The notes below the pieces were generated by a model that searched no databases, was not told where the DNA came from, and saw only the letters and a list, made by a program, of their open reading frames with translations. A stretch of DNA of 36,077 nt from contig QNBC01000002.1 of NCBI GenBank assembly GCA_003641665.1, positions 1-36,077 on the forward strand, written 5' to 3'. How positions within the stretch are numbered: position 1 is the first letter of the stretch; each line of letters begins with the position of its first letter. This document shows positions 1,410 through 31,287 of this stretch, piece after piece. A program made the position numbers and the translations under genes. The DNA is from a candidate division TA06 bacterium (GTDB taxonomy: Bacteria > Hydrothermota > 32-111 > QNBC01).

Positions 1410-1910
1410 TTACCAATAACTGAATATTTTTTCGATTATATCATCGGACACTTTTTTCGAAACATCCTCTTTTGCCTTTTCCAGGTCAAATGTAGTTGCA
1501 TCTTCAGTGATCCAATCTGATATTTCTCCATTATAAATCGCTTTCTTTAACCCCTTACCTTCAATCAAAACAGAAACAGTTAAAGAAATCTTGTAGCTTT
1601 TCACATTCTGCGTAGCATCATAATCGTAAGCTTCTTTCTTAAATGTTTTCACGGTTGATGAAATGGTAATATCTCCACCACTATTGACCAATGATAGTCT
1701 TCCGTCTTTAACGAATCCGGACTTAAGAGCGCTTTCAACAATAGATTCAAGTCCGTACTGGAGGGTATTATTCTTTACCGGTTTAATTACAATTGTTTTC
1801 AGATTTGTTAAAGATCCGCTTTGGAATGTATAATAGATACATCCCTGAGATATGCCAATAAAAATCAATACAAACAGTATTATATTAATTCTTAGGGTTT
1901 TTGAATACAT
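1410..1910 (-). CDS. Small lipoprotein, LptE-like (possible LPS-assembly lipoprotein).
   Basis: It has a signal peptide with a lipobox (LIFIGISQG/C) and a mature protein of about 145 aa with alternating beta-type pattern. Size and layout resemble LptE. The call is by eye only. Confidence 0.45.
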   Translation of the reverse strand: MYSKTLRINIILFVLIFIGISQGCIYYTFQSGSLTNLKTIVIKPVKNNTLQYGLESIVESALKSGFVKDGRLSLVNSGGDITISSTVKTFKKEAYDYDATQNVKSYKISLTVSVLIEGKGLKKAIYNGEISDWITEDATTFDLEKAKEDVSKKVSDDIIEKIFSYW

Positions 1911-5345: not shown

Positions 5346-5346
5346 T

Positions 5347-6531
5347 TTAAACCTCCATTCGGTTTATATAAATTTTTATATCATTTTCACTTTTTAATTT
5401 CCCCTCCAAATACATATTTGCAATTTTATTTATAGTTTCTACATAACGATATTTTGGTAACTTCGGTTTAAACTTTTTAATGATACCACCAACTTTCATA
5501 CGATCGAATTTTCTTATTTTTTTTAATATATTAATCGATGTAATCCCGCTTTTTCCCTTGAATAGTAAATATAGCAAAAGAGCTGTGTCCCCGAATCTTT
5601 TGTATACATTAAAAAGTCCCTCTTCATTCAACTTTGACATCCTGTTCAACCGGTCCCATTCCCTTGGATAAGCTCTTTTTACATTCGAATCATCAATACA
5701 ACTCATAATAAAATAATCTCTGTTAAATTGCGGTATATTATTTTCATTCAAATAGGGATAAATATGAGTAAATTTTTTACTTGAACACTTAAATAACCCT
5801 ATTTTCTCAATCAGTAAGCTGATATTTTCAAAACTTCTTTCCATAAAAATCAAATCCAACTCCCTCTTTAACCGACTTGCGCTTATAGTGGAAAGAGAAT
5901 CTTTTTTTAATGCAGTATTATAGCACCTTACGGTTTTCTTGTCTATATTAAATAAATACTTGCCGGCAAAACGTACTCCCCTAACCATTCTAGTGGGATC
6001 ATCAATAAAACTTTTTTCATATGTTATCCGTAATATTCCGGATAAAATATCCTCTACCCCACCTAAGGGATCAATGATTTTACTGTTTTTAATATCCCAA
6101 ACAATTGCATTAATCGTAAAATCTCTCCTTTTAAAATCCCTTTCCAACGGGCAATATTTAACAACAGGTAATACCCCCGGTTTAGGGTATTTTTCACATC
6201 TTGTTGTTGCAAAATCGAACGTTCTTCCCTTTAATTCAAGTGTTCCGGTCATAAATCGAGTGTTATATCTATAGCTACCTTGAATATTCGTTGCAATTTC
6301 TCGGAGCAAATCGAGTAGATTTCCATCATAAAGGAAATCTACATCTCGTGTCTCTTTATTTAACAAAATATCTCTTATAAATCCCCCTACAATATATATA
6401 TTATCTTTTTCGGTAATCGTTTCTATTATTTCTTTTAATAAATTGTCTCTTTTAAGACGATTTTTTATATTTTTTGCTAAATTAATATGTATATTCCGGT
6501 TCTTTTTCAATTTCCACCTCATCAATGTCAT
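5347..6531 (-). CDS. cca: Class II tRNA nucleotidyltransferase (CCA-adding) / poly(A) polymerase family protein.
   Basis: The head-domain motif is present (IVGGFIRDILLNKETRDVDF, then RRDFTINA), together with a PcnB-type body. The 5' end overlaps the upstream CDF gene by 41-50 nt, depending on which start is used. Confidence 0.7.
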   Translation of the reverse strand: MTLMRWKLKKNRNIHINLAKNIKNRLKRDNLLKEIIETITEKDNIYIVGGFIRDILLNKETRDVDFLYDGNLLDLLREIATNIQGSYRYNTRFMTGTLELKGRTFDFATTRCEKYPKPGVLPVVKYCPLERDFKRRDFTINAIVWDIKNSKIIDPLGGVEDILSGILRITYEKSFIDDPTRMVRGVRFAGKYLFNIDKKTVRCYNTALKKDSLSTISASRLKRELDLIFMERSFENISLLIEKIGLFKCSSKKFTHIYPYLNENNIPQFNRDYFIMSCIDDSNVKRAYPREWDRLNRMSKLNEEGLFNVYKRFGDTALLLYLLFKGKSGITSINILKKIRKFDRMKVGGIIKKFKPKLPKYRYVETINKIANMYLEGKLKSENDIKIYINRMEV

Positions 6532-7606
6532 TAAATCGCTTTATAATCTCATCTTTCAGATTATTCGAATTTGCAATACTGCTTTTTTCATCTTTATATT
6601 TTGCCTCAAAGTATAATTTTATAATTCCTCGATGTTTCACTATGTGAATATCATGAAGTTCTTCAATTTCATCATTATTTTCCGAAACAGAATCCAAAAA
6701 TGCCTTAATCTTTCGGTACAGTTCATCGTTTTCATCAACGGGATCTATGTGTATAGATATATTAATATTTAATTCCTCTTTAATTTTATTCTCAATTCTA
6801 TCTACGATTTCATGAGCTGCTTTCAAAGACATGGATTCAGGCATTACAACATGGGCACTTCCCACTCTAAAATTTCCGTAACTGTTCAAAACAATGTCAT
6901 GCACTCCCTTAATATTATCAAATTCATTAACAATCCCTCTTATCTTTTGTACCGTTTCGCGGGCAGGTGCTTTTCCTATGAGATCGCTAAAAGCTTTCAT
7001 TAAAATTTTAATTCCGATAAATATTATAAAGGCCGATATAAATACTCCCATTACCCCGTCAATCCAGTAAATTTTGTAATAGGATGCGATTATTGATATA
7101 AGAACAAGGACGGAAGAAATAGAATCACTTCTATGGTGCCATGCATCCGCTTTTAATGTATCAGAGCCTATAATTCCTTCGAGATGGAAAGAGTATCTTG
7201 CCATAGCCTCCTTAAAGATTATTGTTAATATTATGATAATAAGTAACAGTATGTTGGATTTTACAATATTGGGATTAATTATTTTATAAATACCTGCTCT
7301 TGCGAATTCCACTCCTATTACTATTAATAAAACGGCAACAATCAATGTAGCAATGCTCTCCGCTCTTTGGTGTCCAAACGGATGTTCTTTATCAGGCGGT
7401 TTTGCACTGATTTTGAAACCAATAATCACAACAACGGAAGTAATTATATCGGAAAGAGAGTGAACGGAATCGACAATTAAAGCATAACTATGAGAAATCA
7501 AACCGAAAATGAGTTTAACGATAAATAAAATGAAATTTCCAATTGTAGAAACGTATCCTTCCCTGATGCCTATTTTTGCCCTTTCGAGTTCTGTATATTC
7601 TCTCAT
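6482..7606 (-). CDS. Cation diffusion facilitator (CDF) metal efflux transporter with an extra C-terminal domain.
   Basis: Six hydrophobic segments carry the CDF metal-site motifs (HSYALIVDSVHSLSD in TM2, DAWHHRSDSISS in TM5). The cytoplasmic alpha/beta domain appears twice. Confidence 0.85.
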   Translation of the reverse strand: MREYTELERAKIGIREGYVSTIGNFILFIVKLIFGLISHSYALIVDSVHSLSDIITSVVVIIGFKISAKPPDKEHPFGHQRAESIATLIVAVLLIVIGVEFARAGIYKIINPNIVKSNILLLIIIILTIIFKEAMARYSFHLEGIIGSDTLKADAWHHRSDSISSVLVLISIIASYYKIYWIDGVMGVFISAFIIFIGIKILMKAFSDLIGKAPARETVQKIRGIVNEFDNIKGVHDIVLNSYGNFRVGSAHVVMPESMSLKAAHEIVDRIENKIKEELNINISIHIDPVDENDELYRKIKAFLDSVSENNDEIEELHDIHIVKHRGIIKLYFEAKYKDEKSSIANSNNLKDEIIKRFNDIDEVEIEKEPEYTY

Positions 7607-9513
7607 CTTAAAACGACAAACTTAAAGTAATTATTCGATTGATTATTGTTAAGTTTCAGAAAATAGAACCCTTGGATTAATTTTAATTGACCAATTTTAC
7701 CCTTAACGATTGTTCCTTTCGTAATCTCTCTTCCTGATAAATCAAAAATTGAATATGTGTACTTCTCCTGTCCGATTCCTTCAAAATATATATTTCCAGA
7801 TCTATAATGCATTCTAATTTCAGCTATTCTATTAACTATTATCGGGTTACTTACACCCCACGGCTTATAATTTACCGTTTTCAAAATCAATGAATCCGGA
7901 TCGAAAACAACACTAATAATACTGTCACTTGTATAAACGGAAAAAGTATCCGCTCTTAATGAATCGAAAAATTGAACAGTTGTATCGTTGTTATTGCTAT
8001 ATAGCCTGAAAGTAATCGGCATTTCAAATACATAGGGTGTATTAATCGATGTATCCTGATTCTGTATAACAGAAATTTCGGTCTTAAATTTACCCGATGA
8101 ATCACCTACCGATTTAAATGCAATCTCATACTCGGGATATCCGGCCTTATAAAGCCATTCGGTGAAAAACCAACTCAAATCCGAACCACACGTAGATTCG
8201 CATACATCTATGAAATCCTGCGATACTGCGGAAGAAAAGGCATACTGTTCCCTGTAATTAGCCAATATTTCCTTAAAAACGGAATTACCAACTACTCCTC
8301 TTAGCATATTCAATAGCCATGCTCCCTTTTCATAAACCGTCGCTCTCCACATGTATAGCGGATTGTATACAGTATATCTAACTGTAGAATCATCAATGAA
8401 ATAGTAATGTTTAAAATCACTCATCCTCTTCTGAAATGCGGAGTCACCATATTCATACTGATGATACATAGCATCGCTATATGTGGCGAATCCTTCATTC
8501 AACCATATATCTTTCCATGTACCACAAGTAACAAGGTCACCCCACCATTGATGAGCAAGCTCGTGGGCAAAAACATAATCGTAATCGTGATTACCCGTAA
8601 TCATCCTGTAGCTAATACTCGTGATTGTTTGATGTTCCATACTGGGCCGCCAGGTAAATTCCGCCATTCCGTATTTTTCTTCTGCAAAGGGATATTTACC
8701 AAAGTAACTATTGTAAAAATCAAGCATACGGGGAATATTGGAAAAATCAATCCGCGCTTTGTTGTAATCCTCCGGGTAAACATAGTAGATAAGAGGGATT
8801 GAATCACCGTCATTAAAATAATACATCTCTGCAAAATTAGAGTAATTTGTTACAGCAATTGATATAAGATACGGAGCTATGGGATATTGTTCATTCCAAT
8901 AATATGTTGCACGGCCGGAATGATATTTCACGGAATCAAGTACACCATTGGAAACTGCAAATAGGGTATCGGGTGCCGTTACGGTAACATGGCTGATTAC
9001 TTTATCATACGGAACATCTTTCAACGGAAACCATGATTTGGCACCTGTAGGTTCGGAAAGTGTAGAAACTATTTCCGAACCCGAATGAAAAGCAAAAGAA
9101 AGTCCCGAATCGGAAACGGATGAGGGATCTCCGTGATAGTAAATATTGAAATTTAACGTTTCATCTTCCGTATAAGATGAATCAAAATATAATTTTAACT
9201 TACCGTTCTCGTGCGTAAACGACAGGTTAGGACCGACAATCGAATCCACCGTCATCTCCTCTGCAAAATCCAAATAGAGACTATCAAACGGTGATTCTTG
9301 TGTAACTATCGCTATATCGTTTTCACCGAAGATCAACTGTTCCTGAAAATAGATATCTATCTTAATATTGTAAGATTGAGCATCATAATTATAACTGTCC
9401 AACTGAGGCGGACTTCGAAAATCTCTGCCATTAAAAAATATCGAATAGGGATCCGCATACACAATACCGTTAATTATTGCGAAAAAGGCAATAATTAAAA
9501 TAATTTTTTTCAT
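7603..9513 (-). CDS. Secreted M1-family zinc aminopeptidase with a T9SS C-terminal sorting domain.
   Basis: It has a signal peptide (MKKIILIIAFFAIINGIVYA), the gluzincin site HELAHQWWGD followed 18 residues later by WLNEGFATY, and a C-terminal beta-sandwich tail of about 80 aa ending GFYFLKLNNNQSNNYFKFVVLR. Confidence 0.85.
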   Translation of the reverse strand: MKKIILIIAFFAIINGIVYADPYSIFFNGRDFRSPPQLDSYNYDAQSYNIKIDIYFQEQLIFGENDIAIVTQESPFDSLYLDFAEEMTVDSIVGPNLSFTHENGKLKLYFDSSYTEDETLNFNIYYHGDPSSVSDSGLSFAFHSGSEIVSTLSEPTGAKSWFPLKDVPYDKVISHVTVTAPDTLFAVSNGVLDSVKYHSGRATYYWNEQYPIAPYLISIAVTNYSNFAEMYYFNDGDSIPLIYYVYPEDYNKARIDFSNIPRMLDFYNSYFGKYPFAEEKYGMAEFTWRPSMEHQTITSISYRMITGNHDYDYVFAHELAHQWWGDLVTCGTWKDIWLNEGFATYSDAMYHQYEYGDSAFQKRMSDFKHYYFIDDSTVRYTVYNPLYMWRATVYEKGAWLLNMLRGVVGNSVFKEILANYREQYAFSSAVSQDFIDVCESTCGSDLSWFFTEWLYKAGYPEYEIAFKSVGDSSGKFKTEISVIQNQDTSINTPYVFEMPITFRLYSNNNDTTVQFFDSLRADTFSVYTSDSIISVVFDPDSLILKTVNYKPWGVSNPIIVNRIAEIRMHYRSGNIYFEGIGQEKYTYSIFDLSGREITKGTIVKGKIGQLKLIQGFYFLKLNNNQSNNYFKFVVLR

Positions 9514-10358: not shown

Positions 10359-10396
10359 AAAATTGATTAATAACTAACTTATTAGGAGGAGGACAT

Positions 10397-11116
10397 ATGG
10401 CAAAAAGAAAAGTTCTAATCATGGGTGCAGCAGGGAGAGATTTTCACAATTTTAACACGTTTTTCAGAGATAATGAAGAGTATGAAGTTGTTGCATTCAC
10501 AGCTACTCAAATACCCGATATTGATGGGAGAAAATATCCTACCGAACTGGCAGGTTCCCTCTATCCTGATGGTATACCTATTTATGACGAAAAAGATCTT
10601 CCCGAACTCATTAAAAAGTTCGATATAGATCTCGTTGTGTTCGCATATAGCGATGTTCCCTACAATTACGTAATGGACAAAGGTTCAATAGTAAATGCCG
10701 CCGGTGCCGATTTTATGTTCTTAGGACCCAAGGCGACTCAGATTAAATCGACAAAACCGGTAATTTCCATTTGCGCAATAAGAACAGGTTGTGGAAAGAG
10801 TCAAACAACAAGAAGAGTATCCGATATTCTCAAATCAAAGGGCTTTAAACTTGCGGCGATTCGTCATCCAATGCCCTATGGCGATTTGACAAAGCAAATT
10901 GCCGAAAGATTCGCAACATACGATGATCTTGACAAATACGAATGCACTATTGAAGAAAGAGAGGAATACGAACCGCATATTGATAGAGGAACCATTGTAT
11001 ATGCCGGTGTAGATTATGAAAAGATAATCAGACAGGCGGAACAAGAAGCCGATATCATACTTTGGGACGGTGGGAATAATGATTTTCATTCTACAAATCC
11101 GATCTCCACATCGTAG
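10397..11116 (+). CDS. COG2403-family P-loop protein (cyclic 2,3-diphosphoglycerate synthetase-like / predicted GTPase), N-terminal part before a frameshift.
   Basis: It has a Rossmann-like N-terminus (KVLIMGAAGRDFHNFN) and a Walker A motif (RTGCGKSQT). The family-like sequence ends at ...ILWDGGNNDF and then continues in another frame. Confidence 0.7.
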   Translation: MAKRKVLIMGAAGRDFHNFNTFFRDNEEYEVVAFTATQIPDIDGRKYPTELAGSLYPDGIPIYDEKDLPELIKKFDIDLVVFAYSDVPYNYVMDKGSIVNAAGADFMFLGPKATQIKSTKPVISICAIRTGCGKSQTTRRVSDILKSKGFKLAAIRHPMPYGDLTKQIAERFATYDDLDKYECTIEEREEYEPHIDRGTIVYAGVDYEKIIRQAEQEADIILWDGGNNDFHSTNPISTS

Positions 11117-11145
11117 TTGTTGATCCGCTGAGACCCAACCACGAG

Positions 11146-11727
11146 ATGACCTATTATCCCGGTGAAGTCAACTTTAGATCAGCAGATGTCATTGTAATTA
11201 ACAAAATCGATTCAGCAAGCCCTGAAGATATTGAAACGGTTCGACACAACATTGAAAAGGCAAATCCCAATGCAATCGTTGTAGATGCCGCTTCACCAAT
11301 AACGGTTGATGATCCTTCCGTTATTAAAGGCAAGAGAGTTCTCATCATCGAAGACGGCCCCACACTTACTCACGGCGGAATGAAAATCGGTGCAGGATAT
11401 GTTGCGGCAAAGAAATTCGGAGCGGCGGAAATTACCGATCCCAAACCTTATGCAGTCGGTACAATAGCCGATACATACAAAAAATATCCCGATACGGGCA
11501 TAATTCTACCTGCAATGGGATACAGCGAACAGCAAATTAAAGACCTCGAAAAAACCATCGAAAATGTTCCCTGCGATGCTGTTGTTATTGGTACCCCAAT
11601 AGATCTCAAAAGAGTTGCAAAAATCGACAAACCTTCAACAAGGGTAAGATATGAACTCGATGAGATAGGGAAACCGGATCTCGAAGATATAATCACAGAC
11701 TTTTTGAAAAGAAAAAATCTTGTATAG
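11146..11727 (+). CDS. COG2403-family P-loop protein, C-terminal part after the frameshift.
   Basis: This frame is open from 11083 (FSFYKSDLHIVVVDPLRPNHE...), upstream of the first ATG at 11146. It contains the NKxD-like motif VINKID. Joined, the two parts give about 443 aa, the usual size for this family. Confidence 0.7.
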   Translation: MTYYPGEVNFRSADVIVINKIDSASPEDIETVRHNIEKANPNAIVVDAASPITVDDPSVIKGKRVLIIEDGPTLTHGGMKIGAGYVAAKKFGAAEITDPKPYAVGTIADTYKKYPDTGIILPAMGYSEQQIKDLEKTIENVPCDAVVIGTPIDLKRVAKIDKPSTRVRYELDEIGKPDLEDIITDFLKRKNLV

Positions 11728-11730
11728 ACT

Positions 11731-12669
11731 ATGAATAATATCGCAGTTGTGGCATTGGGTGGAAATGCTCTGATTAAAAAGGGACAAAAAGGCGATATAC
11801 ATGAACAATTCGCAAACACGAGAAGCAGTCTCAATGCTATAATTCATCTTATAAGAAAAGATTTTAAGGTTGTCATTACGCACGGTAACGGTCCACAAGC
11901 CGGACACGAGCTAATAAAAAACGAAATGGCAGAGGGGGTTGTCCCTCCTCTGCCATTAGGCGTTATAGATGCATCCACTCAGGGATGGATCGGTTATATG
12001 ATAGAACAATCATTACAGAATAAATTACTTTTGGAAAGAATAGACAAGGATGTTGTAACAATAGTTACCCAGGTTCTTGTTGACAAGGACGACCCATCCA
12101 TAACCAACCCGACAAAACCGGTAGGTCCCTTTTACAAGGAAGAGGATCTGCCCAAGTTAAAAGGGAAAGGTTGGGTGATTAAAGAAGATGCGGGCAGAGG
12201 TTACAGAAGAGTTGTCCCCTCCCCCATACCTCTCGGAATTATTGAGAGTAAAATAATTAAAAAGATAATTGATTCAGGAACAATTGTAATAGCTGCCGGA
12301 GGTGGTGGCATACCTGTTTACAAGCAAGAGGATGGAACCCTTGAAGGTTTTGATTCCGTAATCGATAAGGACAGGGCATCGGCAGTTCTTGCTCTGGAAA
12401 TCGGAGCGGATACATTTATAATTCTGACAGGTGTGGATAAAGTTTCTTTGAATTTCAATAAACCCAACCAGGTTGATTTGGATTACATGACTGTTACAGA
12501 GGCACGAAAATATTACGAAGAAGGACATTTTGCAAAGGGAAGTATGGCGCCTAAAATCGAAGCGGCAATTAACTTTCTCCAAAACGGAGGTAAAAGAGTA
12601 ATCATTAGTTCTATCGAAAACGGAGCAAATGCCATAGAGGGAAAAACAGGAACACTGATTACTCCATAG
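11731..12669 (+). CDS. arcC: Carbamate kinase.
   Basis: The N-terminus VVALGGNAL, plus ITHGNGPQ, IAAGGGGIPV, DKDRASA and GSMAPKIEAA, are typical of the carbamate kinase branch of the amino-acid kinase fold. Confidence 0.9.
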   Translation: MNNIAVVALGGNALIKKGQKGDIHEQFANTRSSLNAIIHLIRKDFKVVITHGNGPQAGHELIKNEMAEGVVPPLPLGVIDASTQGWIGYMIEQSLQNKLLLERIDKDVVTIVTQVLVDKDDPSITNPTKPVGPFYKEEDLPKLKGKGWVIKEDAGRGYRRVVPSPIPLGIIESKIIKKIIDSGTIVIAAGGGGIPVYKQEDGTLEGFDSVIDKDRASAVLALEIGADTFIILTGVDKVSLNFNKPNQVDLDYMTVTEARKYYEEGHFAKGSMAPKIEAAINFLQNGGKRVIISSIENGANAIEGKTGTLITP

Positions 12670-12670
12670 G

Positions 12671-13081
12671 ATGAAAGAAAAAACATTTTGTCTCATAAAG
12701 CCCGATGCTTTTGAAAGAAACATTGTCGGTAAAATTCTTGACATTATAGAAGCGCATGGTTTTCAGTTCGTAGCCATGCGCTTTTTGCATTTATCCGAAA
12801 CAGAAGCCGAGCAGTTTTACATTATTCATAAAGATAAGGATTTCTACCATGGGTTGTGCAAATATATGTCAGAAGGTCCTGTCTTATGCATGGTTCTTGA
12901 AAAAGAAAATGCCATTGCCGATCTGAGAAAACTCATGGGAGTAACGGATCCTGACAAAGCGGAAAAGGGAACAATTCGCAATGAGTTCGGGATTGACATT
13001 CGTCACAACTCTATCCACGGCTCAGATTCTCCCGAGAGCGTAAAAAGAGAAATAACTTTCTTTTTTAAAGGAGTTATATGA
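12671..13081 (+). CDS. ndk: Nucleoside-diphosphate kinase.
   Basis: It has TFCLIKPDAFERN, GTIRNEFG and the active-site NSIHGSDS. The stop overlaps the ackA start (ATGA). Confidence 0.92.
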   Translation: MKEKTFCLIKPDAFERNIVGKILDIIEAHGFQFVAMRFLHLSETEAEQFYIIHKDKDFYHGLCKYMSEGPVLCMVLEKENAIADLRKLMGVTDPDKAEKGTIRNEFGIDIRHNSIHGSDSPESVKREITFFFKGVI

Positions 13082-14283
13082 AAATACTTATTATTAATTC
13101 CGGAAGTTCATCGGTAAAATACCAATTAATCAATACATCCACAAATAATGTTTTGTGCAAAGGCTTGATTGAAAAAATAGGGGAGGATGAATCATTCATT
13201 CATCACAATTTCGGAAAAAAGATTTATGAAAATAAAGAAGTCGTAACAAATCACAGTGATGCTTTTAAACGTATGATAACACTCCTAATGGATCATACTT
13301 ACGGCCCCATACATTCGCTAAAAGATATTGATGCCGTCGGACATAGAGTCGTTCACGGGGGGGAAAAATACTCGGAATCCGTTTTAATTGACGAGGATGT
13401 AATAAACGAGATAAGAAACAATGCGAAATTAGCTCCGCTTCACAATCCACCTAACCTAAAAGGTATTTTATCATCGATACAAATGATGCCGGATGTCCCT
13501 CAGGTTGCCGTATTTGATACCTCATTTCATCAGACGATACCTGCACATGCTTATACGTACGGATTGCCATACGACTTTTATAAGAATTACGGGATAAGAC
13601 GTTATGGTTTTCACGGAACAAGTCACAAGTATGTTGCCATGAAAGCAGCGGAATTTTTAAATAAACCCGTTGAGAACACAAACCTTATTACCTGCCATCT
13701 CGGTAATGGTGCAAGCATTACGGCAATCAAAAATGGAAAATCCTATGATACATCAATGGGTTTCACTCCTGTCGAGGGCTTACTAATGGGTACGCGTTCG
13801 GGGGATATTGACCCTGCTATACTAATCTATCTGGAAAACGACCTTAATTATTCCATGCCTCAAGTTAACAATATAATCAATAAAAATAGCGGGCTTCTTG
13901 GCATTTCGGGATACAGTAACGATATGAGGAAAATTGTTAAAAAATCGGAAGAGGGAGATTACAGGGCTAAACTGGCTTTCGACATCTTTTGCTACCGAGT
14001 AAAGAAGTACATAGGGGCATATATGTTTGCAATCGGTACCGTGGATGCTATTGTTTTTACTGCCGGGATCGGGGAAAACTGCATACCGGTAAGGGAATCA
14101 TCCGTAAAAGGATTAGAAGAATTCGGGATTATAATAGATAAAAACAAAAATAGAAATCTTGAGAAAGGTAAAATGGAAGATATATCTGCGTTTAACTCTA
14201 AAATAAGAATACTCGTAATTCCCACCAACGAAGAGTTAATGATTGCAAAAGAGACAGAAACAATTGTTAAAAACTTAAAATAA
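13078..14283 (+). CDS. ackA: Acetate kinase.
   Basis: It has MKILIINSGSSSVKYQL, GHRVVHGG, FDTSFHQT, YGFHGTSH and IPTNEELMIA. Confidence 0.92.
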   Translation: MKILIINSGSSSVKYQLINTSTNNVLCKGLIEKIGEDESFIHHNFGKKIYENKEVVTNHSDAFKRMITLLMDHTYGPIHSLKDIDAVGHRVVHGGEKYSESVLIDEDVINEIRNNAKLAPLHNPPNLKGILSSIQMMPDVPQVAVFDTSFHQTIPAHAYTYGLPYDFYKNYGIRRYGFHGTSHKYVAMKAAEFLNKPVENTNLITCHLGNGASITAIKNGKSYDTSMGFTPVEGLLMGTRSGDIDPAILIYLENDLNYSMPQVNNIINKNSGLLGISGYSNDMRKIVKKSEEGDYRAKLAFDIFCYRVKKYIGAYMFAIGTVDAIVFTAGIGENCIPVRESSVKGLEEFGIIIDKNKNRNLEKGKMEDISAFNSKIRILVIPTNEELMIAKETETIVKNLK

Positions 14284-14292
14284 GGTGAGTTT

Positions 14293-14751
14293 ATGGATAC
14301 TAAAAACGCTTTATCTGTTGAAGAAATCATTCAAAAACACTCAAATGAAAAAGGGACATTAATCCCAATTTTGCAGGAAATACAAGAGAGTTTCGGCTAC
14401 ATCTCCAAGGATGCTATTGAAACGATATCACGACTCACAAATTACGCTGAGAGTGATATTTACGGTGTTGCAACATTTTATTCTCAATTCAAACTTGAAG
14501 AACCGGGGTTGCACAACATCAAGATCTGCCAGGGCACAGCATGTCATGTAAACGGTGCAGATACAGTTAAGGATGTGATTTTTGAAGAACTAAAACTAAT
14601 TGATTATGGGACTACCGATGATAAAAAATTCACCGTTGAACATGTTGCCTGTCTCGGTTGTTGCAGTCTTGCACCAGTTATGATGATTGACGGAGTAGTT
14701 TACGGCAAACTGACCCCCGATAAAATCAGAAAAATATTAAAATCATTCTAA
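14293..14751 (+). CDS. nuoE: NuoE/HydC-like [2Fe-2S] thioredoxin-fold subunit.
   Basis: The Cys pattern is CQGTACHV ... CLGCCSLAP. At 152 aa it sits directly upstream of a NuoF-like gene. Confidence 0.85.
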   Translation: MDTKNALSVEEIIQKHSNEKGTLIPILQEIQESFGYISKDAIETISRLTNYAESDIYGVATFYSQFKLEEPGLHNIKICQGTACHVNGADTVKDVIFEELKLIDYGTTDDKKFTVEHVACLGCCSLAPVMMIDGVVYGKLTPDKIRKILKSF

Positions 14752-14763
14752 CGGGAGAAGATT

Positions 14764-16545
14764 ATGGGTAAATACAAGATTACTGTCGGAATGGGATCAT
14801 GCGGAATTGCTGCTGGTGCTAAACCCGTTTACGATAAGTTGAATAAATTGATACTGGAAAAAAATCATCCGGAAATCACATTGGAAGAAACGGGTTGTGT
14901 CGGAATGTGTTACAAGGAACCACTCGTTGAAGTTATCGATACGGAAACTGGACAAAAAACACTCTACGGTGGTGTAACACCGGAAAAGGTCGAAAAGATA
15001 TTCACAGAACATATTGAAAATAACTCTGTAATCAGAGATTGGGTGGTGAAATCGTCGAAAAAGGACGGTAGTGAAGAAAATCTCTTCGACAAGCAGTATC
15101 GTATCGTTTTATCTAGAACCGGAATAATTAATCCCGAAAGTATACAAGATTACTTAAATAGTAATGGTTATGAAGCTTTGAAAAAAGTCATGAATTCAAT
15201 GTCTCAAACTGATGTTATTGAAGAGATAAAAAAATCCGGTCTTAGAGGCAGAGGCGGAGCGGGATTTCCTACGGGTTTAAAATGGGAATTTGCGAACAAA
15301 GCAAAGGGAGACAAGAAATATATGGTTTGCAATGCTGATGAAGGCGATCCCGGAGCATTTATGGATCGTTCCGTTCTTGAGGGAGATCCACATTCCGTTA
15401 TTGAAGGAATGGTCATTGGTGCTTATGCCATAGGTGCCAATGAAGGTTTTATTTATTGTAGAGCTGAATATCCCCTTGCCATCAAACGACTCAATATTGC
15501 CATTGAACAAGCCGAAAAAGAGGGATATCTCGGTAACAATATATTGGGTACTGATTTTTCCTTTCATTTAAGTATAAAACAGGGAGCCGGTGCTTTTGTA
15601 TGTGGTGAAGAAACGGCTTTAATCGCATCGATAGAGGGAAAAAGAGGTATGCCCCGAATTCGCCCCCCCTTCCCCGCTCAATCGGGAATTTGGGGAAAAC
15701 CGACTAATATAAACAATGTGGAGACATTAGCTAATATCGCCTGGATTATACGGAACGGTGCGGATAAATTTGCCTCCCTCGGTACTGAAAAGAGTAAAGG
15801 GACAAAGGTTTTTTCCCTATCCGGTAAGGTGAAACGAACAGGACTAATTGAAGTACCTATGGGAATTACACTGCGAGAAATCATTTTCGATATTGCAGGT
15901 GGGATAAAGGAGGATAAAAAGTTTAAAGCGGTTCAAGTGGGAGGTCCGAGTGGCGGATGCATCCCCGAATCACTACTCGATACACCTGTGGATTACGATT
16001 CTCTTAGTGCAACCGGAGCTATAATGGGATCCGGTGGAATGGTGGTAATGGACGAAGATACATGTATGGTATCCGTTGCAAAATATTTCCTTAATTTTAC
16101 TCAGAATGAATCATGCGGGAAATGTACATTCTGTAGAGTGGGAACAAAACGAATGTATGAAACGCTTGACAGAATAACCGAAGGGAAGGGTGTACCCGAA
16201 GATCTCGACAAACTCGAAGAGTTAGCTTATATGACGAAAGAATCTTCTCTATGTGGTTTGGGGCAAACTGCTCCCAATCCTGTTCTTACCACTCTTAAAT
16301 ATTTTAGAGATGAATATAAGGCACATATAATAGACAAAAAATGTCCTGCAAAGGAATGCAAAGCACTGATAAAATATGAGATAGATCCCGATAAATGTAA
16401 GTCTTGTAGTATTTGCGCAAGGAACTGTCCTGTAAACGCTATATCCGGAGAAAAAGGTATTCCCTATGTTATCGATCAATCTGCATGTATAAAATGCGGG
16501 AATTGCCTTAGAGTTTGCCCGTTCGGCGCTGTTGAAGTTAAATAG
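14764..16545 (+). CDS. nuoF: NuoF/HydB-like NAD(H)- and FMN-binding subunit with extra Fe-S domains.
   Basis: It has the FMN/NADH motifs GRGGAGFPTGLKW and NADEGDPGAF and the N3 cluster motif ESCGKCTFCR. An N-terminal thioredoxin-like Cys domain (GSCGIAAG...CVGMCYKEP) and a C-terminal 2x[4Fe-4S] ferredoxin (CKSCSICARNCP / CIKCGNCLRVCP) are added. Confidence 0.88.
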   Translation: MGKYKITVGMGSCGIAAGAKPVYDKLNKLILEKNHPEITLEETGCVGMCYKEPLVEVIDTETGQKTLYGGVTPEKVEKIFTEHIENNSVIRDWVVKSSKKDGSEENLFDKQYRIVLSRTGIINPESIQDYLNSNGYEALKKVMNSMSQTDVIEEIKKSGLRGRGGAGFPTGLKWEFANKAKGDKKYMVCNADEGDPGAFMDRSVLEGDPHSVIEGMVIGAYAIGANEGFIYCRAEYPLAIKRLNIAIEQAEKEGYLGNNILGTDFSFHLSIKQGAGAFVCGEETALIASIEGKRGMPRIRPPFPAQSGIWGKPTNINNVETLANIAWIIRNGADKFASLGTEKSKGTKVFSLSGKVKRTGLIEVPMGITLREIIFDIAGGIKEDKKFKAVQVGGPSGGCIPESLLDTPVDYDSLSATGAIMGSGGMVVMDEDTCMVSVAKYFLNFTQNESCGKCTFCRVGTKRMYETLDRITEGKGVPEDLDKLEELAYMTKESSLCGLGQTAPNPVLTTLKYFRDEYKAHIIDKKCPAKECKALIKYEIDPDKCKSCSICARNCPVNAISGEKGIPYVIDQSACIKCGNCLRVCPFGAVEVK

Positions 16546-16550
16546 GAGGT

Positions 16551-19500
16551 ATGATGGCTAAGGTTAACGTAACGATAAACGGAACAAAATACACTGCTGA
16601 CAACAATCAAACTGTCCTAGATGTTTGCAAAGAACATGGTATAGATATTCCCACATTGTGTTATCACGAACAACTCGAACCTTATGGCTCATGCTTCCTC
16701 TGTACCGTTGAAATCAAAGGAGCAAGAAAAAAATATTCCCTCTCTTGCGGAACAAAAGTAAGTGACGGAATGGAAATTCAAACCGATACAAATGAAATAT
16801 GGAAACAGAGAAAAATGGCACTTGAGCTTCTCCTATCCAACCACTATGCCGATTGTATAGGTCCCTGTAAGGATACGTGCCCATCCAATGTCGATGTTCA
16901 GGGTTATATTGCTGCCATTGCAGAAGGGAATTATAAAGAAGCGGTTAAAATTATTAAGAGAGACAATCCGTTTCCTTCCGTTTGCGGCAGAGTTTGTACA
17001 CGTCCCTGTGAAGATGCATGCAGAAGAAATCTTGTTGATTCCAGAGTAGGTATAGATTTCCTGAAGAGATATGCGGCTGATAAAGATTTGGCCAGTGAGA
17101 ATAGTTATACTCCACCTAAAAAGCCCGATACGGGAAAGCGTATTGCAATAGTTGGCGCCGGTCCGGCAGGCCTTTCATGTGCGTTTTATCTCGCAAAAAA
17201 CGGGCATAGTGTTGATATATTCGAACAATACGATAAACCCGGCGGAATGGTACGCTACGGAATCCCCGAATACAGGCAGCCAAACAGTGTTCTCGATATT
17301 GAAATTAAATCCATCACAGACTTGGGACCTAAGATTTTTACTAACCAAAAACTTGGCAGAGATTTTACATTGAATGATTTGAAAAACAAGGGTTATGATG
17401 CCATTTTTCTTGCCATAGGCGCCCATAAAAGTATGGCAATGGGTATAGAAGGAGAAGATGCGAAAGGAGCTTTTGGCGGTATTGATTTTCTCCATGATGT
17501 CGCAAGCGGCAAAAAACCTGAAATCGGGAATGATGTAATTGTCATAGGTGGGGGAAATACGGCAATCGACACGGCACGTGTTAGCTTAAGGCTCGGTGCG
17601 AAAAATGTAACAATGATATACAGAAGAACCATAAATGAAATGCCTGCACATAAAACCGAAATTCAAGATGCATTGGATGAAGGAGTAAAAATTGAGTTCC
17701 TTACCAACCCCGTAAGAATCATTAAAGACGACAACGGTAGTGTTTCGGAAATCGAATGTATCAGAATGAAACTCGGAGAACCGGACAGTTCCGGAAGGAG
17801 AAGACCTTTGCCTGTTGAAGGTTCAAATTTCAGAATAAAAGCTTCTTCCGTAATATTCTCAATCGGGCAACGTTCAGATTTAACGTTTATCAACAATGAA
17901 TCTGATGATATTGCTTCTAAAGTTAAATTTACTCGAAAAAACACGATAGAGACATCAAAAAATACATTTTCTACTGATTATCCCGGTATTTTTGCGGGAG
18001 GTGACTTCAGAAGAGGTCCGGATACCGTTATCGGAGCCATTGCTGACGGGAAAAAAGCAGCTTGGGTTATAGATAAGTACATTACCAACGGTGAAATCGT
18101 TCCTTATCCGGAAGATTTTTTCTCAAAGAAGGATGCTCTTGCGGAACAACTATCGGAAAATTATAAACATTTGCCCAAATTACCTAAAGTTGAGATGCCT
18201 AAACTACCTCCCGAAGTAAGAATAAAAGGATTTGACGAGGTGGAACTTGGTTTTGATGACGAGATGGCTCACAACGAGTCTCTTAGATGCCTTGAATGTG
18301 GCTGTAAAGCCGTTTTCGATTGCGAATTAAAGAAGATATCTACAGAGTATAATGTTGATCAAACATACTTTAAAGGAGAATTTAAAGATCTACCCGTTGA
18401 TGATTCCCATCCATATATAACTTTCGAGCCTAATAAGTGTATCTCTTGTTCGAGATGTATAAGAATGTGTAAAGAGGTTGTCGGATTATCTATTTTAGGA
18501 CTTGTAAATAGAGGATTCAAGACAATTGTCCGACCTGCAATGGACAAACCATTACTTGAAACCGAATGTATCTCATGCGGTTTATGTGCGGATGCATGTC
18601 CAACAGGTGCCATTGTTATAAAACCCAATACTCTGAAACCCGGTCCGTTTAAAGTTGAAACAAAGAAAACCGTTTGCCCATTCTGCAGTTTTGGTTGTGA
18701 ATTGGAAGTTGATGTAATGGGTAATAAAATCATCTCAATTAAAGGATTCCACGATTCTGATACAAATTTATACGGCAATATCTGTAAATTGGGTAGATTC
18801 GGCTTCAAGAAAATTTATGATACTCTCGGTGAAAACGTTTCATGGAAAGAAACCAGGGCATCTGTCATACAACTCGCAAACAAATTAAAAACCATGAAAT
18901 CTGAAAATACGGCATTTTTTGTTTCGGAAAGTTCTACACTTGAAGAGCTATATGTATGGAGTAAAATTTCCGAAGCCCTACCGGGAAGCTTTATATGCTC
19001 AGTTAAAAACACGAATATGAAAAGTAATCTCGAAAAATCTTTTGGCTCCAATCTTTCCCCTAATAACTACGCAACATTAAGAAGCGCCGATGTAATAATG
19101 GCGATTGGTATTCTCCCTTATGATGAAGCTGTTATGGTTGTACCGGAAATCATGAGGAGGAAAAAAGAGGGAGCTAAGTTTGTTTATATAGGGAAAGAGG
19201 ATCATCGGGTTAGCCGAATCGCGGATTTTTATATTCCACTGAATAATGACAACACAATATCCGATTTCGTCAACAGCCTATCTTCTTATATAGTAAAATC
19301 GGGAATAGAGAACAAGGCGTATATAAACGCAAAAACAGATAATTTTGCCGAATTTAAGGAGTATCTGGCTCATTTTGATGCTGATAACCCGTCTTATGAG
19401 GAAATTTCCCAATTGTTTGTCAATGCTGAAAACACCGTAACCATCACATCACACACATCTTATCAATCTGCTCTACTTTCTTCAATTGCAAATTTACTGC

Positions 19501-20063
19501 TTCTCACAGGCAAGATCGGTAGGAACAATGGTGGTTTAATTGTTTTCGGAGAATCCGCTAATTCCGAAGGGGCTAATATTCTCGGATTAAAAAAACCAAT
19601 TGATACTACAAATCTTGAGTTTTCAGTATTTTACAACGAAATACCACCGACAGAATTTGAAAATAACAATAATTTCTACTACATAGGTTACAACAAAACA
19701 GATTACCCTAATACTATAAGAATAAACCATCCCTTTGCAAATAGCGGTATTTTTGTCAATGCAGAGAGAAAAGCTCGTTATTTTCGTTCTGTTGTCTTTG
19801 ATCTTGAATATTCCAATATCGATCTTCTTATTGAACTCCACAATAATTTAACAGGTGCAAACTACACGGCGGATTCAATTAAAGAGGAGATGAAAAATGC
19901 CTATCCGTATCTATTTGACAAGAATTTCAACGATATAACTCCCGATAATATTTACAAATACTATTTCATGAATAAGAGCGGAAGGGGTAATTTTATCATA
20001 AACAAGGAAAAGTCAGACAAAATAATTACTTCAAATATTATAAAGACAAGTGATTTGCCTTAA
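16551..20063 (+). CDS. 1170-aa multidomain redox fusion: [2Fe-2S] ferredoxin, GltD-like NAD(P)H/FAD oxidoreductase, NuoG-type His/Cys [4Fe-4S], 2x[4Fe-4S], and a molybdopterin-oxidoreductase-type [4Fe-4S] followed by a truncated MopB-like domain.
   Basis: aa 1-80: 2Fe-2S cysteines C37/C48/C51/C65. aa ~95-515: CIGPCKDTCP, CGRVCTRPCEDAC, the dinucleotide fold IAIVGAGPAGLSCA, a second fold VIVIGGGNTAID, and FAGGD. aa 574-591: HNESLRCLECGCKAVFDCEL. aa 630-686: CISCSRCIRMC / CISCGLCADACP. aa 709-745: CPFCSFGCELEV...GNICKLG. aa 746-1170: poorly conserved. Confidence 0.85.
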   Translation: MMAKVNVTINGTKYTADNNQTVLDVCKEHGIDIPTLCYHEQLEPYGSCFLCTVEIKGARKKYSLSCGTKVSDGMEIQTDTNEIWKQRKMALELLLSNHYADCIGPCKDTCPSNVDVQGYIAAIAEGNYKEAVKIIKRDNPFPSVCGRVCTRPCEDACRRNLVDSRVGIDFLKRYAADKDLASENSYTPPKKPDTGKRIAIVGAGPAGLSCAFYLAKNGHSVDIFEQYDKPGGMVRYGIPEYRQPNSVLDIEIKSITDLGPKIFTNQKLGRDFTLNDLKNKGYDAIFLAIGAHKSMAMGIEGEDAKGAFGGIDFLHDVASGKKPEIGNDVIVIGGGNTAIDTARVSLRLGAKNVTMIYRRTINEMPAHKTEIQDALDEGVKIEFLTNPVRIIKDDNGSVSEIECIRMKLGEPDSSGRRRPLPVEGSNFRIKASSVIFSIGQRSDLTFINNESDDIASKVKFTRKNTIETSKNTFSTDYPGIFAGGDFRRGPDTVIGAIADGKKAAWVIDKYITNGEIVPYPEDFFSKKDALAEQLSENYKHLPKLPKVEMPKLPPEVRIKGFDEVELGFDDEMAHNESLRCLECGCKAVFDCELKKISTEYNVDQTYFKGEFKDLPVDDSHPYITFEPNKCISCSRCIRMCKEVVGLSILGLVNRGFKTIVRPAMDKPLLETECISCGLCADACPTGAIVIKPNTLKPGPFKVETKKTVCPFCSFGCELEVDVMGNKIISIKGFHDSDTNLYGNICKLGRFGFKKIYDTLGENVSWKETRASVIQLANKLKTMKSENTAFFVSESSTLEELYVWSKISEALPGSFICSVKNTNMKSNLEKSFGSNLSPNNYATLRSADVIMAIGILPYDEAVMVVPEIMRRKKEGAKFVYIGKEDHRVSRIADFYIPLNNDNTISDFVNSLSSYIVKSGIENKAYINAKTDNFAEFKEYLAHFDADNPSYEEISQLFVNAENTVTITSHTSYQSALLSSIANLLLLTGKIGRNNGGLIVFGESANSEGANILGLKKPIDTTNLEFSVFYNEIPPTEFENNNNFYYIGYNKTDYPNTIRINHPFANSGIFVNAERKARYFRSVVFDLEYSNIDLLIELHNNLTGANYTADSIKEEMKNAYPYLFDKNFNDITPDNIYKYYFMNKSGRGNFIINKEKSDKIITSNIIKTSDLP

Positions 20064-20067
20064 AATT

Positions 20068-20092
20068 AAAGGGGAGTTATAAACTCCCCTTT
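20068..20092. terminator. Bidirectional intrinsic terminator hairpin between the convergent operon and tetR.
   Basis: A perfect 10-bp stem, AAAGGGGAGT (20068-20077) with ACTCCCCTTT (20083-20092), encloses a 5-nt loop and is flanked by A/T runs on both sides. The tetR stop codon (20091-20093) lies in the right arm. Confidence 0.7.
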
Positions 20093-20675
20093 ATCCTGTG
20101 GATACTATATACTTTGCAAATTCCTCTATTGCTTTTTCTATATTCACAGTATCGCCTATATCTCTATTTAATTTTAATTCGATTAAACCGTTCATAAATG
20201 CCCATAATAGGTATAAATGATTTGTATAGTCACCCTTCTTTGAACCATTCATAACAAGTCTGTCAAACACTCTTCCAAATGGGAAAATCGGTGCATTTAT
20301 CAAACTCTCTCTCTGTTCCGGATCAATATTGATTTTACTTAGATTTATTTTTGTATACAGATAATAGTATTCGTGATTCTCAACAAAAAAGTCCACATAT
20401 GTATTTATCATTTCTCTCAACAGTTTTTCTTCGTCATCTTCCTCAATATGCCTCATTTCATTCACAAGTTCATTTAGTTTACTGTGTAAAATTTCAAAGA
20501 GAAGTTCTTCTTTATTGCTGAAATAGCTATAAATAACCGTGGCACTGTATTTTATTTTACCGGCAACCTTTCTCATCTTAATATTTTCTATGCCACCGGA
20601 TTCGAAAAGTTTAATAGCGGTGTTTAATATTTTGTTTTTTAAAAATTCACGGTGTTCTTTCTGTCGCTCATTCAT
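20091..20675 (-). CDS. TetR/AcrR-family transcriptional regulator.
   Basis: An N-terminal helix-turn-helix (IENIKMRKVAGKIKYSATVIYSYFSNKEELL) is followed by an all-helical C-terminal ligand domain. Length is 194 aa. Confidence 0.85.
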   Translation of the reverse strand: MNERQKEHREFLKNKILNTAIKLFESGGIENIKMRKVAGKIKYSATVIYSYFSNKEELLFEILHSKLNELVNEMRHIEEDDEEKLLREMINTYVDFFVENHEYYYLYTKINLSKINIDPEQRESLINAPIFPFGRVFDRLVMNGSKKGDYTNHLYLLWAFMNGLIELKLNRDIGDTVNIEKAIEEFAKYIVSTG

Positions 20676-20676
20676 A

Positions 20677-20691
20677 ATAATATGATATTAT
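20677..20691. promoter_or_regulatory. 15-bp perfect palindrome, a candidate TetR operator, overlapping the tetR -10 element.
   Basis: ATAATAT-G-ATATTAT lies at 20677-20691, 1 nt from the tetR ATG at 20675. The minus-strand TATAAT at 20692-20687 overlaps it. Confidence 0.35.
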
Positions 20692-20925
20692 AAATTCCAG
20701 AAGTTGTAAAGAGAAATCGATTTTTTATAGTAAATAGGTCCGCCTCCATTAAAGTTTCGACGGCAGTTATAGACATATTGATTGGTTTACAATTTTTAGA
20801 TTCCTTTCTGTTGGATAAGTAAACATTTCTACTGATTTTTCGACAGATACGCGGAACAATCTCTCACAATTGTTTATCTTTGGGGAATATTCATCTGCTC
20901 ACATTTTAACTATCTTTTAATGCTC

Positions 20926-29358: not shown

Positions 29359-31287
29359 ATGAAAAAGTTCTTTATCGCCGTGCTGCTATTCTCCATGTTC
29401 ATGGGGTCTGTTTATGGAGACAAAATCTACCGTCTCCCAACAACTATCGTCTCTGCCGACAGGTTTAAAAGTTCAAAAAACAAAACATCGTATCGCGTGA
29501 CGGTTATTACGGCAAAGGAAATTGAAAATCTCGCACTTCGCAATTTGTCCGAGATCATCGATTATTCATCGAACATCATAACTTCGGATAACGGCTATAA
29601 CGGTTCTGTTGCCAAAATTTCCATGAGGGGAGGATTCACTCGCCATATCACCGTTATGATCGACGGAGTTCCTATAAACTCCTCATTTAACGGCTCTCCC
29701 GATCTTACTCTTATTCCGACGGAGTCAATCAAACGAATCGAAATTATCGAAGGTCCCATTTCGGCTATGTACGGCAGCGGTTCCATTTCCGGTGTTATTA
29801 ATATCATAACAAAGGACGATTCAAGAAATACTTTCTCTATCGGTTTAAAAAATAGAAACGGCTATAAATGCTCGGCTTCCGTTTCCACCCCTTTTGGTTA
29901 TCTCCTCTTCTCTATCGGAAATGACAGGAGCTGGAGAAGTAATACCGATTTAAGTAAGAACAGTTTCTTGTGGGAAAAGAAAATTTCCATTAACCGGTTC
30001 GATCTTTCATTAACTACATTATATTCGGGTTATCGTGTCGGTGTACCTGGTCCAATGCCTGATAGTAATTTTATTCCCGAGTTCGGAGATTCAACAGCAA
30101 ATTCTCTGTATAATCATCAGAATACACACAAATTTCTTACCAAACTATCATCAATTTACAACTTTAATTCAAACAATATGATTCGCTTAAACTACTCTCT
30201 TAGTTTTGATTCTCTGCTTTATTATTCTCAGGACAGAAGTTGGATTGATAATTCCGTTCAACATTCATATTACAGGTACTTGACGATTTCGAATTTCCCT
30301 GAAATCGTATATCTGCTATCGAAACATTCGTTCGATTTCAGTATCGGAGGGAATCTAAACGTGCAAAATAACTATTCACATAGCGATGTATACGGAGATT
30401 CAAATATCTTGTCGGATAGTTCTTCATGGAATGTAAAATACAATACATACTCGATTTTTCAAGAAGGAAAATTGAAATTTATTCCACATTTCATTCTCGA
30501 AAATAAGCTGAGATATGACTATGTTGTACTGAGTAAAGACACGATATCCAGAAAATTCAATGCTTTATCCTATGCGTTGGGAACTGTTTTCAACTATAAG
30601 ATATTTCTATTAAAGGCAAATTACGGAACCGCATTTAAAAACCCGGGGCTAAACGATCTTTTCTTCCCCTATATGGGTAATCCGGATTTGAAAGCCGAAA
30701 ACAGCAGGGAGTTTTCAACATCTTTCGGAATCAATTTGTATAAGACTGATTTTAATGTCTCATATTTTAATAAAAGCATAGACAATTTGATATACTGGAA
30801 CGGAATGACACCGCAAAATATAAACAGCGTTAAAATTAACGGTCTTGAAAGTGGCTTTAAGGCTTCATTCTCCCTACTGAGCCTCTCGATCAATCTTTTA
30901 TATCAGAAATCGATTAGCCACGATCTAATTGACTCTCTCGGTAACTATATAGAAAGACCCACTCCCTATTCCCCCGATTTCAAAGCATCTTACGGTATTA
31001 CTCTATATCTTCCTCTCGGTTTCACATTAGGAAATTCCGGGACATTCACATCCTCTTATGTTAATTACTTCAAGAATTATTCAGGAGGTATCGACACTGT
31101 AAAAACAGAAAACAATTTTATCATAAACGCAAATGTAAACAAAAATATGGATAACACAAATATCTCCTTTTCAATAAACAACATACTCGACTACAGGGGT
31201 ATAAAGAACTTCGGGTATTCTGCATACGATAGAGGGTATCCTTTTGACGGCAGAAGATTCGAATTTTCGATTTCTTCAACATTTTAA
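29359..31287 (+). CDS. btuB: TonB-dependent outer-membrane receptor, probable cobalamin/corrinoid transporter (BtuB-like).
   Basis: A signal peptide is followed by a plug domain (VITAKEIEN..., RGG..., [35 protein letters not shown]) and a beta-barrel with a terminal aromatic residue (...SISSTF). The substrate call rests on the upstream B12 riboswitch. Confidence 0.8.
   Translation: [642 protein letters not shown]

Follow-up and report, generated by a model that had tools for sequence, protein, structure and literature searches.

A 36,077-nucleotide stretch of contig QNBC01000002.1 (assembly GCA_003641665.1, candidate division TA06 bacterium; hereafter the window) contains an open reading frame (ORF) at 16551..20063 (+), which is a real gene with an ATG start and a product of 1170 amino acids (aa). 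Judged from sequence, the region 14293..20063 very probably encodes a heterotrimeric Nfn-Bfu transhydrogenase (NfnABC, the same as StnABC) of the Type 1 BfuABC group, and the 1170-aa protein would be its large subunit, NfnA/StnC. The genes nfnC, nfnB, and nfnA are adjacent on one strand, spaced by 12 nucleotides (nt) and then 5 nt. The best PDB sequence matches of NfnA are the large subunits of the Caldicellulosiruptor saccharolyticus (Csac), Sporomusa ovata (Sov), and Thermococcus sibiricus (Tsi) enzymes (9bov_A, E 2.3e-236; 8oh5_C, 1.7e-210; 9n5u_A, 1.1e-197). The AlphaFold model of NfnA has a mean predicted local distance difference test score (pLDDT) of 82.9, and the top three Foldseek matches of the model are the same chains (9bov_A, 2.5e-99; 8oh5_C, 2.7e-95; and 9n5u_A), aligned over about 1120-1193 columns. 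A bifurcating transhydrogenase chemistry had been expected in the original prediction, and this is supported by NuoE/F-like partners with bifurcating-core features directly upstream. The suggested likeness to Stn and NfnABC enzymes is also real; both do combine a GltD-containing large subunit with a MopB-like tail. The suggested novelty is not, since StnC, Csac NfnA, and Tsi NfnA (a shorter form) have already been characterised with cryo-EM structures. The protein comes from a WOR-3 genome and is an uncharacterised orthologue of an already characterised enzyme type.

The partner subunits were compared with the same solved complexes. The best PDB matches of NfnB are Csac 9bov_B (3e-265) and Tsi 9n5u_B (7e-265); those of NfnC are Tsi NfnC 9n5u_C (3.5e-46) and Csac NfnC 9bov_C (1.5e-44). 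The alignment of NfnC with Tsi NfnC takes in a conserved interdomain linker (YSQFKLEEPGLHNIK versus YAQFRFEPLGKYVIK). The thioredoxin-like domain of NfnC holds the ligands of the [2Fe-2S] cluster C1 (C79, C84, C120, and C124). NfnB has an N-terminal thioredoxin-like domain with C13, C45, and C49 (Pfam 2Fe-2S_thioredx at 1-81), an FMN/NAD(H) site, the ligands of the B1 [4Fe-4S] cluster (C451/454/457/497), and a C-terminal 2x[4Fe-4S] ferredoxin-binding domain (C545-555 and C575-585; two Pfam Fer4 matches). In its linker, a His/Cys3 site (C434, H521, C527, and C532) corresponds to C437, H524, C529, and C534 of the Tsi subunit.

The Pfam scan of NfnA returned Fer2_4 (4-80), Fer4_20 (104-181), Pyr_redox_2 (197-500), Fer4_Nqo3 (621-688), Molybdop_Fe4S4 (704-757), and Molybdopterin (762-1020), with E-values of 1e-13 to 3e-33, far beyond chance. 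This is the same sequence of domains as had been read from the translation, so the predicted domain order was correct. The Molybdopterin match spans only profile positions 16-248 of 353, and the Molydop_binding cap is absent from the Pfam scan of NfnA. The GltD-like module had been proposed to be an insertion rather than an end-to-end fusion, and the NuoG, HoxU, and HydA matches agree with this, as they come in two pieces (about 4-102, and from 589 on). In NCBIfam, the NuoG, HoxU, and [FeFe]-hydrogenase group A6 models each match NfnA in two separate stretches: residues 5-102/108 correspond to model positions of about 1-103 in all three, and residues 589-1016 correspond to positions 102-504 of the NuoG model. 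NuoG chains in the PDB are split likewise, e.g. into matches at 4-102 and 589-882. In NuoG these halves directly adjoin each other; the GltD-like sequence, about 485 aa long, has therefore been inserted at a single point of the scaffold.

The Cys positions of NfnA fit seven clusters, one [2Fe-2S] and six [4Fe-4S]. The ligands are C37, C48, C51, and C66 for the [2Fe-2S] cluster; C102/106/110, C149/153/157, and K172 for the two [4Fe-4S] sites of the GltD module; and C630/633/636/640 and C673/676/679/683 for the ferredoxin-type clusters. The GltD-like module also contains an FAD fold (GAGPAG at 202-207), an NADPH fold (GGGNTA at 333-338), and R235. In an alignment of 30 diverse homologues (38-67% identical to the query), every cluster-ligand Cys, K172, R235, and both dinucleotide glycine motifs are invariant. 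K172 aligns with Sov K170 and Tsi K165, the Lys ligand of the FAD-proximal cluster; R235 aligns with Sov R239 and is the counterpart of the N5-contacting Arg of NfnL. The His of the His/Cys cluster motif that had been read at residues 574-591 did not stand. H574 is variable in the alignment, and Leu or Ile is found at the same position in the solved enzymes; it was therefore ruled out as a ligand. The cluster is all-Cys (CxxCxCx5C), with C580, C583, C585, and C591 as ligands. It occupies the place of the His-ligated cluster of NuoG and HydA, and the alignments with HydA1 and YjgC begin at 570-580.

Two further residues near the GltD-module clusters were observed. H98, within the sequence SNHYADC, is invariant in the 30 homologues and, judging by the ligand pattern of dihydropyrimidine dehydrogenase (DPD) and GltD, may be the likelier eighth ligand of these two clusters. 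C145, in a GltD-like CGRVC motif, is also invariant in the 30 homologues, and none of the three solved NfnA/StnC proteins keeps it. Sov and Csac carry a Cys where the window protein has V116 (Sov C114), and Sov C114 was discussed as a possible extra ligand (PMC10482914). The window protein and all 29 aligned homologues have C145 and no Cys at 116, and the reverse is found in Sov and Csac (Ile at the C145 position in the latter). This swap was considered as a variant cluster ligation and dropped; Tsi NfnA has neither Cys (V and L) and still binds both GltD-module clusters (PMC12018979), so neither residue is required.

By analogy with the solved complexes, the cofactor content, activity, and direction of the enzyme may be described as follows. 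The inserted GltD/NfnL-like module would bind NADP(H) at its FAD, a non-bifurcating one. Single electrons would pass from the Lys-ligated [4Fe-4S] cluster to the second cluster of this module, on to the CxxCxCx5C cluster and one of the ferredoxin-type clusters, and then to the [2Fe-2S] cluster at the N-terminus. From there they would arrive at a [4Fe-4S]-FMN-[2Fe-2S] site for bifurcation, to which the NuoF-like and NuoE-like subunits both contribute. There they would be split between NAD+ at the FMN and ferredoxin (Fd) at NfnB's C-terminal 2x[4Fe-4S] domain. In sum, the reversible reaction would be 2 NADPH + NAD+ + Fd(ox) <-> 2 NADP+ + NADH + Fd(red). The Fdh-like part is expected to bind no pterin and to catalyze nothing, and its two clusters would form a dead-end branch, which in the solved enzymes ends at the Molybdop_Fe4S4-type cluster. 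As in the solved homologues, it may serve as a scaffold for NfnC docking and, as in Sov and Csac, for oligomerisation.

Several points weigh against this assignment. Over the whole Foldseek alignment, the identity to the characterised NfnA proteins is only 32-36%, with far higher values within the redox core. A Foldseek TM-score of 0.55, together with a large root-mean-square deviation, indicates that the domain orientation in the monomer model differs from that in the complexes. The window NfnB scores 884 bits against NfnB, just slightly above the 854 bits against a NiFe-Bfu B subunit, and the B subunit by itself would not fix the substrate. NADPH production from NADH and reduced ferredoxin is the likely direction in this fermentative-looking WOR-3 host, as a guess from context.

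The three proteins might instead form a non-bifurcating NADPH:acceptor oxidoreductase, such as an SfrAB-like NADPH:ferredoxin/Fe(III) reductase or an electron donor resembling the small subunit of glutamate synthase, with the NuoEF-like proteins as a simple NADH dehydrogenase module. The PRK12814 model ('putative NADPH-dependent glutamate synthase small subunit') covers residues 2-643 with 710 bits, PRK12771 exceeds its cut-off, and the GltD-like FAD is non-bifurcating even in the Stn and Nfn enzymes (PMC10482914, PMC12018979). However, the 710 bits of PRK12814 are below its cut-off of 916, and TIGR01317 and TIGR01318 are also under their cut-offs. No GltB-like large subunit gene is present in the 36-kb window. 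Moreover, NfnB carries the traits tied to bifurcating Bfu cores, namely a thioredoxin-like domain at its N-terminus, the His/Cys3 site, and a 2x[4Fe-4S] domain at its C-terminus, and the best matches of all three subunits are experimentally bifurcating complexes. The non-bifurcating alternative is considered very unlikely, and the Nfn-Bfu assignment is preferred.

Within the Nfn-Bfu assignment, the Fdh-like remnant might have acquired a new role in the WOR-3 clade, as a substrate or partner site or as an electron overflow store. The ligands of the dead-end-branch clusters are invariant. The remnant is confidently folded in the model (pLDDT of 80-95 for most residues before about 1125). It is also under purifying selection: in comparison with the 87%-identical orthologue from a candidate division WOR-3 metagenome-assembled genome (MAG), the nonsynonymous divergence (pN) is 0.19 in 761-887 and 0.06 elsewhere, against a saturated synonymous divergence (pS) of about 0.8. 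Only the pN values were used for this pair, since the synonymous sites are saturated (pS 0.70-0.80) and dN/dS is not properly computable. An 'overflow pool' has been floated by the authors of the Csac structure for the dead-end branch (PMC11829005). On the other side, the remnant evolves about 3 times faster than the redox core, and identity in 761-1170 is 2-4 times below that of the core (47-51% versus 74-77% for homologue P0002; 10-26% versus about 50% for distant homologues). The total length of the relatives varies from 963 to about 1260 aa. Past residue 745 just E798 and E799 are invariant in the alignment, and N1004, G1007, and G1066 are nearly so. A scaffold or oligomerisation role accounts for the retention of the domain (PMC10482914, PMC12018979, PMC11829005). 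There is nothing positive in support of a new function, which is regarded as extremely improbable; 'vestigial but structural' is the right description of the Fdh-like domain.

The tail of the protein had been described as low in complexity and Asn-rich. The Asn-richness holds (15% N in residues 1021-1170), yet the model predicts a folded chain until about residue 1125, and only the last 45 residues are of low order. In 1126-1170 the pLDDT is mostly 41-56 and rises up to 74 only at about 1141-1150. Weak constraint, in a window with a GC content of 36%, would fit the composition of the tail. The extent of the remnant also differs among relatives. In the closest homologue clade (P0004-P0014, WOR-3/Stahlbacteria-like), the proteins have 1028-1147 aa, and most members are without even a weak Pfam Molybdopterin match; the MopB body is better preserved in a large group of environmental homologues of about 1230-1260 aa. 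Erosion of the remnant appears to have gone further in some lineages than in others.

NfnA could also be taken for a catalytic alpha subunit, either that of a formate dehydrogenase linked to NAD(P) or that of some other molybdopterin oxidoreductase. It has the Pfam Molybdop_Fe4S4 and partial Molybdopterin matches and scores 125 bits against the NCBIfam Fdh-alpha model, and JGI and NCBI name its homologues 'formate dehydrogenase major subunit' and 'molybdopterin-dependent oxidoreductase'. The score of 125 bits, however, is far under the cut-off of 666. In the alignment with E. coli FdhF (1aa6), K819, N820, and G1000 stand in place of the active-site residues Sec140, His141, and Arg333. The alignment extends no further than FdhF residue 345 of 715, so that the second half has no counterpart. 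Cys/Sec-His is found at the active-site position in none of the 30 homologues. C816 was considered as a Mo ligand but discarded, since it lacks conservation and its counterpart in FdhF is a Cys that is not a ligand and lies three positions ahead of Sec140. No pterin is present in the solved homologues (PMC10482914, PMC11829005). The degeneracy that had been proposed for the MopB domain is therefore upheld: the active-site residues are replaced, and the second half and the cap are absent. Having neither a Mo/W ligand, nor the catalytic His and Arg, nor a cap, the Fdh-like part is predicted to be catalytically dead, and the formate dehydrogenase reading is refuted at the sequence level. A HydABC-type [FeFe]-hydrogenase was rejected as well, with FeFe_hydrog_A6 at 194 bits against a cut-off of 765 (matching 5-108 and a second short stretch) and with no H-cluster domain (Fe_hyd_lg_C) in the Pfam scan of NfnA.

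Database proteins that match NfnA at E <= 1e-20 number at least 7999, and its architecture is common to the 120 best listed. The closest genome match is the WOR-3 MAG mentioned above (WFRF01000162.1, locus L001), and those close homologues that have names likewise come from MAGs of WOR-3 and Stahlbacteria. A match on a Mogibacterium contig was spurious (28% identity over 170 aa). In the window, arcC, ndk, ackA, nfnC, nfnB, and nfnA are co-oriented over 11731..20063 (+), with gaps of -4 to 12 nt (Table 1). The same order is kept at 1430..8914 of locus L001, which has 79.5% DNA identity to the window. This suggests a conserved unit that ties genes of substrate-level phosphorylation to the transhydrogenase. 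The scan of 10200-20800 found 40 promoter-like sites (34.4 +/- 5.8 in shuffled sequences) and 12 terminator-like sites (8.6 +/- 3.5), neither above chance, and for this reason the operon boundaries are not established. The best promoter-like site (10331-10358) is upstream of the split gene at 10397. It might be that nfnCBA is co-transcribed with arcC, ndk, and ackA in the WOR-3 lineage, with co-regulation of redox-pool balance and substrate-level phosphorylation, and that the remnant is more than a scaffold and has a lineage-specific role such as electron storage or partner docking, but this combination is considered very unlikely.

Table 1. Positions of the predicted Nfn-Bfu genes, the segments of NfnA, and the co-oriented upstream genes in the window.
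Feature	Position (nt)	Strand	Basis
nfnA (stnC), large subunit, 1170 aa	16551..20063 (including stop codon)	+	full-length PDB and Foldseek matches
nfnC (stnA), NuoE-like, 152 aa	14293..14751	+	Pfam 2Fe-2S_thioredx, E 3.7e-49
nfnB (stnB), NuoF-like, 593 aa	14764..16545	+	Pfam Complex1_51K 1.3e-48, NADH_4Fe-4S 1.5e-34
NfnA N-terminal domain, aa 1-100, [2Fe-2S] cluster A1	16551..16850	+	Pfam Fer2_4 at 4-80
Inserted NfnL/GltD-like module, aa 101-570	16851..18260	+	Pfam Fer4_20, Pyr_redox_2; StnC/NfnA/NfnL alignment
All-Cys [4Fe-4S] motif C580-x2-C583-x-C585-x5-C591	18288..18323	+	four Cys invariant
Two ferredoxin-type [4Fe-4S] clusters	18411..18614	+	Pfam Fer4_Nqo3 at 621-688
Molybdop_Fe4S4-type [4Fe-4S] cluster, C709/C712/C716/C745	18660..18821	+	Pfam PF04879 at 704-757
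Fdh-like (MopB) remnant, aa 762-1125	18834..19925	+	partial Pfam Molybdopterin; FdhF alignment
C-terminal 45 aa, low predicted order, Asn/Ile/Lys-rich	19926..20060	+	pLDDT, composition
Carbamate kinase	11731-12669	+	NCBIfam arcC above cut-off
Nucleoside-diphosphate kinase	12671-13081	+	NCBIfam ndk above cut-off
Acetate kinase	13078-14283	+	NCBIfam ackA above cut-off

Some neighbouring features were also observed. Directly upstream of the carbamate kinase gene, 3 nt apart, the ORFs 10397..11116 (239 aa) and 11146..11727 (193 aa) on the + strand are the halves of one gene. This gene is intact in locus L001 (47..1426; 459 aa), to which the halves are 99% and 95% identical at the amino acid level. 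A 1-nt deletion in a T-run breaks the frame at about 11082/11083 of 10397..11727; the split gene may be either a pseudogene or the product of a homopolymer assembly error. Its protein has no Pfam or NCBIfam family match. Downstream, a TetR-family regulator (20091..20675, -) is convergent with nfnA, with 27 nt between the stop codons, and the scan found no terminator-like hairpin between the two genes. A cobalamin riboswitch (RF00174; 29115..29297, +; 85 bits, full-length model) directly precedes a TonB-dependent receptor ORF (29359..31287), which is presumably a BtuB-like B12 importer. Elsewhere, the window contains ordinary diderm housekeeping genes, including LptE, the TonB-dependent receptor, and ClpB.

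A fitting name for the gene is NfnA/StnC, NADP(H)-binding subunit of the Nfn-Bfu transhydrogenase. The database names of its homologues, 'formate dehydrogenase major subunit', 'molybdopterin oxidoreductase', and 'glutamate synthase small subunit', are wrong for NfnA. The assignment also places Nfn-Bfu in the candidate phylum WOR-3. In earlier surveys the family was found mainly in Firmicutes and Euryarchaeota (PMC9304861), and Nfn is unmentioned in a 2025 survey of WOR-3 metabolism. The result is useful for the metabolic reconstruction of uncultivated WOR-3 anaerobes; it adds no new kind of enzyme and matters little beyond annotation.

The Bfu family and the Type 1 Nfn-Bfu members were defined by Schut et al. 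(2022, PMC9304861). The Sov, Csac, and Tsi enzymes are known to be tightly coupled, in that NADPH reduces ferredoxin only in the presence of NAD+ (PMC10482914, PMC11829005, PMC9304861). The C. saccharolyticus NfnABC (9BOV/9BP5) has the same three subunits and the same order in NfnA, which has 1178 aa. Its NfnA consists of an N-terminal domain (NTD), an NfnL-like part, and an Fdh/NuoG-like part, with seven Fe-S clusters and FAD; the pterin site is incomplete, no pterin density was seen, and A2-A4-A5 form a dead-end branch (Li et al. 2025, PMC11829005). It is the best match of the window protein both by sequence (aligned 4-1014) and by fold (1190 columns), with 36% Foldseek identity over the whole length, but the tail past about residue 1015 is unalignable by sequence. 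The N-terminal Cys pattern of the window NfnB (GSCG...TGCxGxC) is shared by Csac NfnB. The Csac source is a thermophilic Firmicute, whereas the window derives from a WOR-3 genome of 36% GC.

The S. ovata StnABC (8OH5/8OH9) contains a StnC of 1172 aa with six [4Fe-4S] clusters, one [2Fe-2S] cluster, FAD, and NADPH. In StnC, residues 1-101 form a [2Fe-2S] domain and 102-565 a GltD-like one; the NuoG domain has an FdhF-like part (683-1172) described as 'catalytically inactive' (Kumar et al. 2023, PMC10482914); its clusters C1 and C2 were regarded as a non-functional evolutionary remnant, and the StnABC activity was credited to Kremp et al. 2020 (both in PMC10482914). K170 and R239 of StnC are K172 and R235 of the window protein, and a long disordered C-terminal region is reported for the Sov protein too (PMC12018979). 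The Foldseek identity is 33%, and the segment of about 850-885 in the Fdh-like region of the window protein is deleted in Sov. S. ovata is an acetogen, in which StnABC links the redox pools of the Wood-Ljungdahl pathway.

The T. sibiricus NfnABC (9N5U/9N5V) has the same subunits and mechanism, and gives the top PDB match of NfnC and the joint top match of NfnB. Its archaeal NfnA is shorter, and the Lys ligand of the A7 cluster is conserved (Xiao et al. 2025, PMC12018979). With 963 aa, 209 residues fewer than Sov NfnA, it is without the A4 cluster, the C-terminal helix bundle, and the disordered region, whereas the window NfnA retains every Cys motif of Csac and Sov. The Tsi complex is a heterotrimer, not a tetramer of trimers.

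More distant relatives share single modules. The large subunit of NfnSL/NfnAB (T. maritima 4YLF_B and P. furiosus 5JCA_L) corresponds to residues of about 104-517 (E 1.5e-91 and 1.8e-85). NfnSL and the GltD/DPD modules have both [4Fe-4S] sites of the window module, along with its FAD and NADPH folds. In NfnSL, however, the FAD itself bifurcates, the non-Cys ligand is Glu instead of Lys, and there is neither a NuoG-like scaffold nor a BfuBC partner. Geobacter SfrAB also uses NADPH and combines a NuoG/Fdh-like SfrA with a GltD-like SfrB, but it has two subunits, each module has a chain of its own, and NuoEF partners are not known. FdhF/FdsA and NuoG (Nqo3) have a homologous [2Fe-2S] NTD, ferredoxin-type clusters, Molybdop_Fe4S4, and the first Rossmann-like MopB domain. 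Compared with FdhF/FdsA, the window protein lacks the Sec/Cys-His-Arg triad, the second MopB half, and the beta-barrel cap; compared with NuoG and Fdh, it carries the GltD module after the NTD.

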